NCBI RefSeq assembly: GCF_003790525.1
Contig: NZ_CP033635.1
Length of the DNA: 64,000 nt
Strand: one strand, 5' to 3'
Origin: Escherichia coli
GTDB taxonomy: Bacteria > Pseudomonadota > Gammaproteobacteria > Enterobacterales > Enterobacteriaceae
Positions 7,690 through 13,546 of this stretch are shown here, one piece after another; within the stretch, counting starts at the first letter, position 1; each line of letters begins with the position of its first letter. Below the pieces are notes generated by a model, which was given only the letters and a program-made list of their open reading frames with translations, searched no databases and was not told the DNA's origin. The translations under genes and the position numbers were made by a program.

Positions 7690-8658
<969 letters not shown>

Positions 8659-10803
8659 TTAAAGTGCACAGGAGACGCAGCCTTCAATTTCAGTGCCTTC
8701 CAGCGCCATCTGACGCAGGCGAATGTAATAGAGCGTTTTGATACCCTTGCGCCAGGCGTAAATCTGCGCTTTGTTGATATCGCGAGTGGTGGCGGTATCG
8801 GGGAAAAACAGCGTCAGCGACAGCCCCTGATCGACATGGCGAGTCGCTTCCGCGTAGGTGTCGATGATCTTTTCTGCGCCGATTTCGTAAGCGTCCTGAT
8901 ACAGCGCCAGATTTTCGTTAGTCATAAACGGGGCAGGGTAGTAAACGCGTCCTGTTTTGCCCTCTTTGCGTATCTCTACTTTCGCCACAATCGGATGAAT
9001 ACTCGACGTGGCATGGTTGATATAAGAGATAGAACCGGTTGGGGGCACCGCCTGGAGATTCTGGTTGTATATGCCATAGCACATCACGTCGTCGCGCAGC
9101 TGCGCCCACATCTCACGGGTAGGTAACGTAACACCACTACGGGCAAACAGTTCGCCAACTTTCGCCGTTTTCGGCTGCCAGTTACTTTGCAGATATTGGC
9201 TGAAATATTCACCACTGGCATAGCGTGACTGTTTGAACCCGGCGAAGGTTTCACCGCGTTCGCGCGCCAGCAACATCGAGGTACGCAGTGCGTGCCAGGT
9301 GATGGTATAGAAATAGAGATTGGTGAAATCCAGTGCTTCCGGCGAACCATAAGCGATGCCTTCTCGCGCCAGATAACCGTGTAAATTCATCTGCCCCAGA
9401 CCGATGGCGTGTGAGGCGGCATTTCCGGCTTCGATGGACGGCACACTGCGGATATGACTCATATCTGACACCGCCGTTAAACCGCGTACGGCAGTCTCTA
9501 CCGTGCGGGCAAAGTCGGGGGAATCCATGGTGTGGGCAATATTCAACGAACCTAAATTGCAGGAAATATCATGGCCTGTACGGGCATAGTCGAGATTCTC
9601 GTCATAATCTGAGGCGCTGTTAACCTGCAAAATTTCTGAGCAGAGATTGCTCATATTTATGCGCCCGGCGATAGGGTTAGCACGGTTAACCGTGTCTTCA
9701 TACATGATGTACGGATAGCCAGACTCAAACTGGATCTCTGCCAGTCGCTGGAAGAAATCACGGGCGTTGAGGTATTTTTTGCGAATGCGTTCATCGGCAA
9801 CCAGTTCGTCATAGTGTTCACTGATGGCGACATCGGCAAACGGCTTGCCATAAACCCGCTCAACGTCATAGGGCGAAAACAGCGCCATCTGCGCATTCTC
9901 TTTCGCCAGATGGAAAGTGATATCCGGGATCACCACGCCCAGCGACAGTGTTTTAATGCGGATTTTTTCGTCGGCATTTTCCCGTTTTGTATCGAGAAAA
10001 CGCAGAATATCGGGATGATGAGCATGTAAATAGACTGCCCCAGCCCCCTGACGCGCGCCGAGTTGGTTGGCATAGGAAAATGCGTCTTCCAGCATTTTCA
10101 TCACCGGAATCACGCCAGAAGATTGATTTTCAATACGTTTAATTGGCGCGCCCGCTTCCCGCAGATTCGACAGCAAAAATGCTACGCCGCCGCCGCGTTT
10201 CGACAGTTGTAGTGCGGAATTTACTGCCCGGCCAATCGACTCCATATTGTCTTCAATACGCAGCAGAAAACAGGAAACCAGTTCGCCGCGCTGCTGCTTA
10301 CCGCAGTTGAGGAATGTTGGCGTGGCTGGCTGAAAGCGTCCTGACAGCATCTCATCAGTGAGCTGCGTCGCTAGTGTTTCATCGCCTTGTGCCAGCGTCA
10401 GCGCCACCATCGTGACGCGATCGGCAAAATCTTCCAGATAACGCTTACCGTCGAATGTCTTCAACGTATAGCTGGTGTAAAACTTCCATGCTCCGAGGAA
10501 TGTCTGGAAACGAAAACCGCTGGCGTGCGCGTGGGCAAACAGCGTAATGACAAAATCGCGAGAGTAGCGATTAAGGACGCTTTCATCATAGTAACCTTCG
10601 TTAACCAGCCAGTTCAGGCGCTGCTGCTGGCTACTGAAGGCCACACTGTTCGGACGCACATGCGTTGTCATAAAGGCGTCTACTGCCTGGCGATCTTTAT
10701 CGAACTGAATGCGACCTGCGCTATCGTAAAGGTTAAGCATCGCATTCAGAGCGTGATAATCCATCGTTTCCTGCGTCAGGCGTTCTGCGGTTGTCGTTGC
10801 CAA
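8659..10803 (-). CDS. nrdE: Class Ib ribonucleotide reductase alpha subunit NrdE
   Basis: 714-aa ORF with C-terminal cysteines (...CVSCAL). Confidence 0.95.
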
Positions 10804-11186
10804 AATTCGGTTACTCCTTTACGAACGTTTTCGATATCGCTTTGCGTACCCATGAGTTCAAAGCGGTACAGCCACGGCACGCCGCATTTCCGGGCAATCA
10901 CATCTCCGGCGCGGCCATATGCCTCACCAAAGTTGCGATTACCCGAAGCAATAACGCCGCGCAGCAACGCCCGGTTATGCTCGTCGTTTAAAAAGCGAAT
11001 GACCTGTCGTGGCACCGCGCCAGCCGTACCGCCGCCGCCGTAAGAGGGCACGATCAGGATGTAAGGCTCGTCTACCTGAATCCGTTCCCGCTCATTGAGC
11101 GGGATGCGCACCGCGGGCAGCCCTAAACGTTCGATAAAACGCTGCGTATTTTCGGAGCTGCTGGAAAAGTAGACGAGCTGGCTCAT
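10776..11186 (-). CDS. nrdI: Flavodoxin-like NrdI
   Basis: 136-aa ORF overlapping the nrdE start. Confidence 0.93.
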
Positions 11187-11428
11187 GCACTGGCCGCGTG
11201 TGGCGCTGGATGCAGACGATTGATCATGTCCGGGCGGAAACCAGACCAGCTAAGATCGCCTGCAATCACAACCGGCAACTGACGAAAGCCCTGAGCACGC
11301 AGCGCTTCTGCCGCTTCAGGAACGCGATCGACATTAATCATTTCAAAATCAAAGCCCCGGTTTTCCATCGCCCGTTTGGTGGCGTGGCACTGAACGCAAT
11401 CGTTACGAGTGTAAATAGTAATGCGCAT
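11183..11428 (-). CDS. nrdH: Glutaredoxin-like protein NrdH
   Basis: 81-aa ORF with CVQC redox motif; first gene of nrdHIEF. Confidence 0.93.
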
Positions 11429-11636
11429 GATTCGTATTTCCGTTTAAAATGAAGATACGGCGCGATGATACGCGTCGGGTTGTCTCTCTGTTGATACAGA
11501 GATACTAGATGTAGTTGAAAAAAGATTCAACCACACAAGATATGGGAATTTTAGATTGATTACGCCACCGATGAATGGCTCAACGGGGTAGGGGATTTTG
11601 TGTTTTTTTGCCGGGCGAATACCCGGCATCAAGAAG
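11429..11636 (-). promoter_or_regulatory. nrdHIEF promoter/operator region (candidate NrdR/Fur sites)
   Basis: About 200 bp upstream of the first operon gene; contains palindrome-like acagagatactagatgt and cacacaagatatggg resembling NrdR-box half-sites. Not computationally scored. Confidence 0.3.
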
Positions 11637-12068
11637 TTACATCCGCATGGAAACGGCCAGACGGTTAAAACAATTCATCAGCCCGATGGCAAACGTTAAG
11701 TCGCTGATCTCTGCTGCGCTGAAATGCTCAAGCAAAGGCTGATAAACCTCGTCTTCCGCATGGGTTCTGGCAATTTCGGTTACCGATTCCGCCCATGCCA
11801 GCGCCGCCCGCTCGCGTTCATCAAAATGATGGCTTACGCGCCAACCTGCCAGGGCGTCCAGTTTGTGCTGTGGCACGCCGGATTTGCGCAATGCTTTGCT
11901 GTGCATCTCCAGACAAAATGCGCAGCCGTTGATTTGCGAGACGCGCAAATAAACTAACTCCATCAACGTGGTATCCAGTGTGCTATTTTCCAGTGCCGTT
12001 TTGGCCTGCACTAGTGCGTTATACACTGCCGGGCTAAGTTCGTAGTAAGGCTGACGTAATGTAGTCAT
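11637..12068 (-). CDS. Carboxymuconolactone decarboxylase / AhpD-like family protein
   Basis: 143-aa ORF with GCAFCLEMH (CxxC...H) core typical of the AhpD/CMD fold; AGGAG Shine-Dalgarno upstream of ATG. Confidence 0.7.
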   Translation of the reverse strand: MTTLRQPYYELSPAVYNALVQAKTALENSTLDTTLMELVYLRVSQINGCAFCLEMHSKALRKSGVPQHKLDALAGWRVSHHFDERERAALAWAESVTEIARTHAEDEVYQPLLEHFSAAEISDLTFAIGLMNCFNRLAVSMRM

Positions 12069-12155
12069 ACAGTTTCTCCTCTTATTAACGCCCGCAATGT
12101 AGCACTATAATGGACTGCTAAAGAGAGCCATAAATTACCTAAAAAAGCAGACCAT

Positions 12156-13490
12156 ATGCCGCGCTATCAGGATATCGCCCGTCAGTTAAAAACGGCTATT
12201 GAGCAAGGGGAACTGAAACCCGGCGCAAGGCTGCCTTCAAGTCGTACCTGGTCGCAGGAGCTGGGGGTGTCTCGATCCACTGTCGAAAATGCGTATGCTG
12301 AGCTGGTGGCGCAAGGATGGCTGATCAGGCGGGGACAGGCTGGCACATTTGTCAGTGAGCGGATATATCCGCAACAATCTACTGTACAAGTTGTAGCTTT
12401 TGCCGGTGAAAGTCAGCAACCGTTGCCATTTCAAATGGGATTACCCGCACTCGATCTCTTTCCGCGAGAGCTGTGGGCGCGGGTGATGGGGCGTCGCCTT
12501 CGTACCCAGACGCGCTTTGATTTGGCGTTAGGCGATGTCTGCGGTGAGGCGGCGTTGCGCGAGGCAATAGTTGATTACTTACGCGTTTCACGTGGGATTG
12601 ATTGTCAGCCAGAGCAGGTCTTTATCACTCACGGTTATGCGGCCTCAATAGCTTTAATTCTGCACGCGCTGGCGAAACCGGGAAACGGGATGTGGATAGA
12701 AGATCCCGGCTTTCCACTGATTCGCCCGATTGTCACTCGCCATGATGTGGAAATTTTGCCTGTGCCGGTTGATGACAATGGACTGGATATCACAAGCGGA
12801 ATACAAAATTATCCTGATGCGCGTTTTGCCCTGATAACACCAGCACACCAAAGTCCGCTGGGTGTGGCGCTCTCTTTAGCGCGCAGGCATCAGATACTGG
12901 AATGGGCAGATCGTAGTCAGGCATGGATTATTGAAGATGATTATGACAGTGAGTTTCGCTATCACGGTAAGCCGTTACCGGCGTTGAAAAGTCTCGACGC
13001 ACCGCAGCGGGTAATTTATGCCGGAACATTCAGCAAAGCGCTATTTCCTGCATTGCGCTGTGCGTGGCTGGTGGTGCCGGTGAAGCAAATTGCACAATTC
13101 CGCCACCAGGCGTCACTGGCTCCATGTGCGGTACCTGTTCTATGGCAGAACACACTGGCAGACTTTCTTCGCGAGGGGCATTTCTGGCGGCATCTGAAGA
13201 AAATGCGTCAGCATTATGCTCAACGTCGGCAATGGATTGAGCAAGCGTTGACGCAGCAAGGATTTCAGGTTGTGCCGCAGAAAGGTGGTATCCAGATGGT
13301 GATCAGAATGATAGGCGATGATATTGCCCATGCGCGTAAAGCCAATGCTGCAGGCCTTGCGGTGCAGGCACTTAGCGACTGGCGTATCCGTTCAAGTGGG
13401 GAAGGTGGATTACTGCTTTCGTTTACTAATATCGTTAACGAAGGTATGGCGCGACAGGTAGCACAACAATTACGTAAAGCCTTAAGCTAA
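12156..13490 (+). CDS. MocR/GabR-type regulator (GntR HTH fused to PLP aminotransferase-like domain)
   Basis: 444-aa ORF; N-terminal winged-HTH (LPSSRTWSQELGVSRSTVENAYAELVAQG) and C-terminal fold-type-I motif with putative PLP lysine (TFSKALFPALRCAWLVVP). Divergent from the AhpD-like gene. Confidence 0.75.
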   Translation: MPRYQDIARQLKTAIEQGELKPGARLPSSRTWSQELGVSRSTVENAYAELVAQGWLIRRGQAGTFVSERIYPQQSTVQVVAFAGESQQPLPFQMGLPALDLFPRELWARVMGRRLRTQTRFDLALGDVCGEAALREAIVDYLRVSRGIDCQPEQVFITHGYAASIALILHALAKPGNGMWIEDPGFPLIRPIVTRHDVEILPVPVDDNGLDITSGIQNYPDARFALITPAHQSPLGVALSLARRHQILEWADRSQAWIIEDDYDSEFRYHGKPLPALKSLDAPQRVIYAGTFSKALFPALRCAWLVVPVKQIAQFRHQASLAPCAVPVLWQNTLADFLREGHFWRHLKKMRQHYAQRRQWIEQALTQQGFQVVPQKGGIQMVIRMIGDDIAHARKANAAGLAVQALSDWRIRSSGEGGLLLSFTNIVNEGMARQVAQQLRKALS

Positions 13491-13516
13491 AAAACCCCGA
13501 AGCCAGGCTTCGGGGT
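13491..13516. terminator. Stem-loop between the convergent MocR-like gene and ygaM
   Basis: ccccgaag-ccagg-cttcgggg hairpin flanked by an A-run on the + strand (T-run on the - strand); likely ygaM terminator. Confidence 0.5.
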
Positions 13517-13546
13517 CAAAGACGCGTATTTATTATCATTTTTGCA

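Follow-up and report, generated by a model that had tools for sequence, protein, structure and literature searches.

Promoter-operator region of nrdHIEF in an Escherichia coli of CFT073 type: the known NrdR box pair downstream of a putatively ancestral MocR-CMD gene pair

The interval 11429-11636 of the window (the window being the entire 64,000-nucleotide stretch of Escherichia coli DNA analysed here) is the promoter-operator, read on the minus strand, of nrdHIEF, the operon of the back-up, class Ib ribonucleotide reductase. We put at roughly 90% the probability that it represents the known nrdHIEF promoter-operator, composed of a pair of NrdR boxes, a sigma-70 promoter and a Fur site over the nrdH start codon, with a gene for a carboxymuconolactone decarboxylase (CMD)/AhpD-like protein and a divergent gene for a MocR-type regulator as an ancestral pair upstream. 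In this arrangement two NrdR boxes of 16 bp, with 15 bp between them, would flank the sigma-70 promoter, and control by NrdR, a mechanism established for the K-12 sequence, would extend to the window. Fe2+-Fur would repress from a weak cluster about 55-85 nt downstream of the putative transcription start, and IscR would activate, as it is reported to do in K-12, through a site that overlaps the -35 element. The upstream gene pair would have been deleted in K-12-type E. coli. Control of K-12 nrdHIEF by NrdR, Fur and IscR is textbook knowledge. The features of the region are compiled in Table 1.

Table 1. Genes, putative regulatory elements and hairpins at the nrdHIEF locus of the window
Feature	Position	Strand	Basis or remark
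nrdF	7690-8649	-	ORF and RefSeq annotation
nrdE	8659-10803	-	ORF and RefSeq annotation
nrdI	10776-11186	-	ORF and RefSeq annotation
nrdH, first gene of nrdHIEF	11183-11428 (ATG at 11428)	-	ORF and RefSeq annotation of the identical locus
Weak overlapping Fur-like cluster GGAAATACGAATCATGCGCATTACTATTTAC	11411-11441		over ribosome-binding site and nrdH start codon
GC-rich imperfect palindrome CGACGCG-tatcat-CGCGCCG	11458-11477	-	nrdH leader; sequence conservation
Putative transcription start	11495	-	about 7 nt past the -10 element; 5'UTR of about 67 nt
Putative -10 element TAGTAT	11507-11502	-	inside box 2
NrdR box 2 CAACTACATCTAGTAT	11502-11517	-	identical to K-12 box 2
15-bp linker GGTTGAATCTTTTTT	11518-11532	-	identical to K-12
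Putative -35 element TTGAAT	11530-11525	-	inside the linker; from 17-bp spacing to TAGTAT
NrdR box 1 TTCCCATATCTTGTGT	11533-11548	-	aligned to the published K-12 probe
GC-rich hairpin/palindrome ACCCCGTTGA-gccat-TCATCGGTGG	11565-11589	-	upstream of box 1; covariation
Stable hairpin UGCCGGGU-auuc-GCCCGGCA	11609-11628	-	just past the CMD stop codon
CMD/AhpD-like protein, 143 aa, CxxC motif	11637-12068	-	PF02627, E = 3.5e-21; RefSeq
MocR-type regulator, divergent from CMD	12156-13490	+	PF00392 (GntR helix-turn-helix) and PF00155 (aminotransferase-like)
Strongest local Fur-like sequence AAAAATGATAATAAATACG	13525-13543		directly past the ygaM stop; 13/19, 13.4 bits, rank 4

The sequence-only reading had taken this interval for the nrdHIEF control region and had placed an AhpD-like gene, rather than ygaM, at its upstream border. 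Both assignments are correct: the right half of box 1, the linker, box 2 and the leader down to nrdH are identical to K-12, and ORFs, RefSeq annotation and Pfam matches all identify the adjoining gene as AhpD-like. CMD and nrdH are co-directional, with 208 bp between them, and beyond the MocR gene, on the side away from nrdH, follow ygaM, ygaC, alaE and stpA. The 208-bp interval finds matches in 5421 of 5426 complete E. coli genomes. It is present as a whole in 1388 of the 5426, and the rest share only 11429-11543, with ygaM directly upstream. The window belongs to the CFT073 type of E. coli and is 100% identical to FDAARGOS_497, while CFT073 itself (NC_004431) departs from it only at a few single bases, by substitution or indel, including one that causes a frameshift in CMD. 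In the 2002 CFT073 assembly (NC_004431.1) a 1-bp deletion near the 3' end of CMD leads to a RefSeq protein of 161 aa, not 143 aa. Over window positions 11400-11760, old sequencing errors probably account for the small indels of this assembly relative to the window and FDAARGOS_497. An apparent third E. coli haplotype (H20; P276M, NZ_CP044293.1), with a match to 11429-11497 only, was rejected as an artefact of a frameshift-ridden assembly, where almost all genes of the locus bear frameshifted or partial annotations.

NrdR boxes of K-12 nrdHIEF have reportedly been described by Rodionov & Gelfand in 2005 and by Torrents et al. in 2007. The register of the boxes in the window follows from alignment with the published K-12 nrdHIEF probe of 57 bp, ACTAT-TTGCTATATATTGTGT-GGTTGAATCTTTTTT-CAACTACATCTAGTAT-CTCTG, in which box 1 and box 2, joined by a 15-bp linker, have 5 nt of flank on either side (PMC12176259). 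E. coli NrdR loaded with dATP/ATP binds this probe with a KD of 138 nM (about 140 nM), and the boxes overlap the polymerase site at nrdHIEF (PMC12176259).

The scoring matrix draws solely on the boxes of nrdAB and nrdDG in K-12, four in number, and is therefore independent of nrdEF. Box 2 reaches 11.4 bits with this matrix (rank 2 of 63,985 window positions) and box 1 7.5 bits (rank 22 of the same 63,985). Combined over the 15-bp linker, the two boxes amount to 18.9 bits and form the top pair of the 64-kb window, in line with the NrdR matrix hits that the sequence-only reading had anticipated for this region; the best pair formed without box 2 reaches 11.5. There are 8 copies of the six-position core CNANATNTNG in 64 kb, among which only those of box 1 and box 2 are 31-32 bp apart, and a core pair at this spacing was found in 0 of 200 shuffles. 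The signal of the NrdR box pair is far above chance.

C4, A6, A8, T9, T11 and G13 are the conserved positions of NrdR boxes, and native boxes are 63-100% AT between C4 and G13 (bioRxiv 10.64898/2026.05.11.724285). All six positions are present in both boxes of the window. The AT content between C4 and G13 is 6/8 (75%) in box 1 and likewise 6/8 (75%) in box 2, within the native range, and the linker (11532-11518) has a length of 15 bp, within the 15-16 bp of NrdR operators. Box 2 ends 73 bp upstream of the nrdH ATG, and the operator overlaps the putative promoter hexamers. The top single NrdR-like box of the window (11.8 bits), AGACAATATGGAGTCG, falls within the nrdE coding sequence (10237-10252) and lacks a second box at a distance of 15-16 bp.

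The two strings that the sequence-only reading had described as near-palindromic and as resembling NrdR operator half-sites occur once each on the plus strand, acagagatactagatgt at 11496-11512 and cacacaagatatggg at 11532-11546. acagagatactagatgt covers 11 of the 16 nt of box 2, plus 6 nt of the transcription-start region, and cacacaagatatggg covers 14 of the 16 nt of box 1. Their attribution to an NrdR operator is supported; both overlap the published boxes, albeit slightly out of register, and the matrix ranks the box pair first. The elements are complete 16-bp NrdR boxes, not half-sites, and the strings are not near-palindromic, with self-complementarity at 8/17 positions in acagagatactagatgt and 8/15 in cacacaagatatggg; the true box 2 and box 1 have 10/16 and 6/16, respectively.

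TTGAAT and TAGTAT, 17 bp apart, plausibly constitute a sigma-70 promoter with its start near 11495. Both hexamers are at least 95% conserved in a scan of 80 enterobacterial nrdH loci, with one genome per species. With 8/12 matches they remain below the cut-off of the promoter scan and are consequently absent from its calls. The scan lists TCAACA-18-TATCAT (11494-11465), a candidate that was rejected because it is not conserved. IscR type II sites are approximately 25 bp long. The placement of the promoter fits NrdR boxes over the polymerase site as well as an IscR type II site containing the -35 element, from which IscR activates nrdHIEF in K-12 (PMC8561392). A consensus fit for the IscR site itself returned poor matches in both E. 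coli haplotypes.

The arms of the leader palindrome are at least 90% conserved, and its loop is variable. Drawn by hand as a hairpin, it displays weak covariation and a conserved A.C mismatch. The single-sequence fold of the 5'UTR is no better than that of shuffles (z = +0.44), RNAalifold predicts nothing for it, and a permissive-threshold Rfam search of 11300-12200 yielded no match.

Fur matrix hits within the interval had likewise been anticipated from the letters alone. Control by Fur is borne out by a ChIP peak and by fur-mutant derepression in CFT073, but 11442-11636 holds no Fur-like site, and the only Fur-like cluster nearby is located at or beyond the edge of the interval. A scan with the 19-mer Fur consensus gives no match of at least 11/19 in 11429-11636, and a 7-1-7 Fur model finds nothing in the interval either. 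The Fur matrix was trained on 14 strong CFT073 ChIP-seq summits (PMC7157518 Table S5A), with summit-to-site offsets of -34 to +30 bp among the training peaks, and converged on GATAATGATAATCATTATC; it detects nothing of 3 bits or more in 11442-11636.

The Fur-like cluster comprises three overlapping matches (11/19 at best), at 11423-11441 (7.0 bits), 11417-11435 (5.4 bits) and 11414-11432 (3.5 bits), with offsets of 6 and 3 bp, a spacing known from Fur clusters. The 7.0-bit site belongs to the top 0.08% of window positions, yet is below the leave-one-out range of the training peaks (8.0-22.4 bits). Positions 11411-11441 are nearly invariant in the 80 species, including the synonymous sites of codons 2-7, although the demands of translation initiation could be just as good an explanation for such strong conservation. 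CFT073 has the haplotype of the window, with two extra genes between ygaM (c3223) and nrdH (c3226). Its Fur ChIP-seq summit is at 3081278, with a height of 849, and the nrdH ATG at 3081260 (PMC7157518). The summit accordingly falls 18 bp inside nrdH, at about window position 11410, and the centre of the best Fur-like site is 22 bp away, inside the offset range of the training peaks. In a CFT073 fur mutant nrdHIEF is up 68-147-fold (Banerjee et al. 2020, PMC7157518). We infer 11411-11441 as the exact site, the paper giving a ChIP summit, not a site. Fur more usually represses by occluding the promoter than by binding beyond the start, which counts against this placement.

The two best Fur-matrix hits of the window are found elsewhere, at 25978-25996 (18.4 bits) and 27987-28013 (18.1 bits) in AT-rich DNA; a 750-aa ORF on the minus strand (25372-27624) contains one of them and has the other 370 bp upstream. 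The hit at 27987-28013 overlaps a single NrdR-like box (11.3 bits). Both hits may be a reflection of AT-richness.

Two hairpins separate CMD from box 1. The hairpin just past the CMD stop codon has an 8-bp GC stem, which forms the main helix of a -19 kcal/mol fold of the 66 nt 11585-11650 (z = -3.0). It is followed by AAAAAAACACAAAA (A7) and by no U-tract, and so does not have the form of an intrinsic terminator; the terminator scan did not call it and returned nothing on the minus strand. In the 80 species it is Escherichia-specific and poorly conserved elsewhere.

The hairpin upstream of box 1 was examined as a hand-specified helix of 10 bp. Among 81 sequences it exhibits 89 two-sided changes, against 36 +/- 6 in shuffled data (0/500 as high), and its covariation score is 0.276, against at most 0.179 in slid controls. 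RNAalifold reports no consensus structure for this region, the covariation being seen only with the hand-specified structure, and the support for this hairpin is moderate. It is conserved across Enterobacteriaceae, irrespective of whether CMD or ygaM is the neighbour, and in Pseudocitrobacter, Raoultella and some Klebsiella it is succeeded by a T-run. In the present strain 7 of the 10 pairs form; the Escherichia sequence carries two mismatches and no T-run. Its probable role is to terminate or insulate the upstream gene, and it has decayed in Escherichia.

Since no canonical terminator is found between CMD and nrdH, read-through into nrdHIEF is conceivable, in which case a MocR-controlled CMD promoter would feed the operon as a second input in the strains that bear the cassette. 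The short distance on a common strand, the A7 tract in place of a U-tract, the empty minus-strand terminator scan and the imperfect hairpin upstream of box 1 speak for such coupling. We nevertheless regard it as improbable: termination or pausing at the 8-bp GC stem, in a fold of about -19 kcal/mol, is still conceivable, an elongating polymerase would be stopped by downstream-bound NrdR and Fur, and the size of the Fur effect in CFT073 indicates that the native promoter dominates. Slightly less probable again is an elaborated form, in which the read-through would be regulated by MocR and the decayed hairpin upstream of box 1 would act as an insulator or attenuator that tunes the coupling.

The AhpD-like gene had been described as inserted in this strain, which is probably the wrong way round. 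The order ygaM-MocR-CMD-nrdH, in the same orientation, occurs in 41 of the 80 enterobacterial species, and the pair is absent in the other 39. Its carriers include Escherichia albertii, E. whittamii, many Citrobacter, Salmonella enterica subsp. diarizonae, the Klebsiella oxytoca group, Raoultella and Yokenella. Identity values of MocR are correlated with those of the flanking YgaC (Spearman 0.80), and those of CMD with those of MocR (0.88). Over the 140 bp upstream of the start, the window has 81-89% matches in Citrobacter, Salmonella and Enterobacter, compared with only 76-78% for the distal segment of K-12, one Escherichia sp. excepted. The plus-strand MocR stop codon and the T-tract of the minus-strand ygaM terminator overlap at 13488-13494, a very tight packing that is consistent with long co-residence. 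On account of the shared position, the ygaC-tracking divergence, the family-type upstream sequence and the terminator overlap, we favour MocR-CMD as a putatively ancestral resident of the ygaM-nrdH gap in Enterobacteriaceae that would have been lost repeatedly. In K-12 about 1.87 kb (~1.9 kb), roughly window positions 11617-13490, have most likely been deleted, and the right edge of this deletion falls in the 3' arm of the post-CMD hairpin.

The opposite course of events, a recent insertion of the AhpD-like gene (with the regulator) that displaced ygaM and rewired nrdHIEF, for instance by removing an upstream Fur operator, could draw on the position of AAAAATGATAATAAATACG, the best local Fur-like sequence, which precedes the nrdH ATG by 235 bp in K-12 and by about 2.1 kb in the window. 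It could further draw on the functional Fur box reported far upstream, at -309, in S. Typhimurium (PMC2892513) and on the low identity, only about 60%, of the two E. coli haplotypes over the 70 bp upstream of box 1. This scenario is very unlikely and largely refuted by the common location and orientation of the pair in 41 of the 80 species and by its ygaC-like divergence. Moreover, the upstream sequence and box 1 of the window represent the common type of the family and those of K-12 the unusual one, and Fur still binds and represses nrdH in CFT073, where the peak list contains none at c3223-c3225 (PMC7157518). AAAAATGATAATAAATACG, which is E. coli-specific, was dropped as a displaced Fur box for this lack of a listed peak together with the intact Fur control of nrdH. 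Fur most likely acts at the start-codon region and not at the better-scoring box beside ygaM.

Box 1 of the window differs from K-12 box 1 at positions 3, 5 and 10, with C for G, T and A, respectively. The change A5C and changes at positions 7, 10, 3 and 14 leave the affinity of EcoNrdR in vitro unchanged (bioRxiv 10.64898/2026.05.11.724285). Because it departs from K-12 only at positions published as indifferent for binding, the variant should be tolerated. A box pair with a 15-bp linker, 71-75 bp from the nrdH ATG, is found in 80/80 enterobacterial species. TTCCCATATCTTGTrT is the commonest form of box 1 among them, and the K-12 form is unusual; the core of box 2 is invariant in the family, and GGTTGA of the linker is at least 95% conserved. 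To judge from these sequences, the NrdR operator is intact in the CFT073-type haplotype, and NrdR would be expected to bind this allele of box 1. A crippled operator, with box 1 too degenerate and NrdR control abolished or reduced in roughly one E. coli strain in four, could be read from the low self-complementarity of box 1, the C at its position 5, the lower pair score (19.0, compared with 25.7 in the K-12-type allele) and the fall in AT between C4 and G13 from 100% in K-12 to 75%, but is the least likely of all the alternatives, as every critical position is kept, the altered ones are published as tolerant, the AT content stays inside the native range, this exact variant is the most frequent in Enterobacteriaceae, Salmonella included, and a mutated box 1 of S. 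Typhimurium nrdHIEF derepressed the operon (PMC2892513).

The closest known system is nrdHIEF of K-12 (Rozman Grinberg et al. 2025, PMC12176259), with the same operon and architecture and with identical box 2, linker, leader and nrdH. K-12 differs in the three positions of box 1, in the 70 bp upstream and in having ygaM instead of CMD as its neighbour. The nrdHIEF operon of Salmonella Typhimurium (Panosa et al. 2010, PMC2892513) likewise possesses two NrdR boxes and is repressed by Fur. Its functional Fur box, located at -309 from the start, is unlike the window cluster over the start codon. The Salmonella loci examined share the box 1 form of the window, TTCCCATATCTTGTAT, and S. enterica subsp. 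diarizonae has the MocR-CMD pair as in the window. In subsp. diarizonae, GCTGAAGATAATGTTTATC (9.3 bits) lies within the CMD coding sequence, 385 bp before the nrdH ATG, a position that matches the Salmonella -309 Fur box; its E. coli equivalent, GCGGAAGACGAGGTTTATC, is not Fur-like. The Fur regulon of UPEC CFT073 (PMC7157518) pertains to the same strain type as the window, with a strong nrdH peak and derepression in the fur mutant.

The nrdHIEF switch region is already known and characterised, and the present analysis has little significance beyond its correct annotation. It adds an operator that appears intact in the CFT073-type haplotype and a covarying hairpin upstream of that operator. The box 1 of K-12 and its ygaM-adjacent arrangement appear to be derived, so that K-12 would not be a typical enterobacterial reference for the nrdHIEF promoter. 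For the modelling of strain variation, the locus offers a 1.9-kb presence/absence polymorphism that ends a few bases before the operator core and leaves the critical bases untouched.
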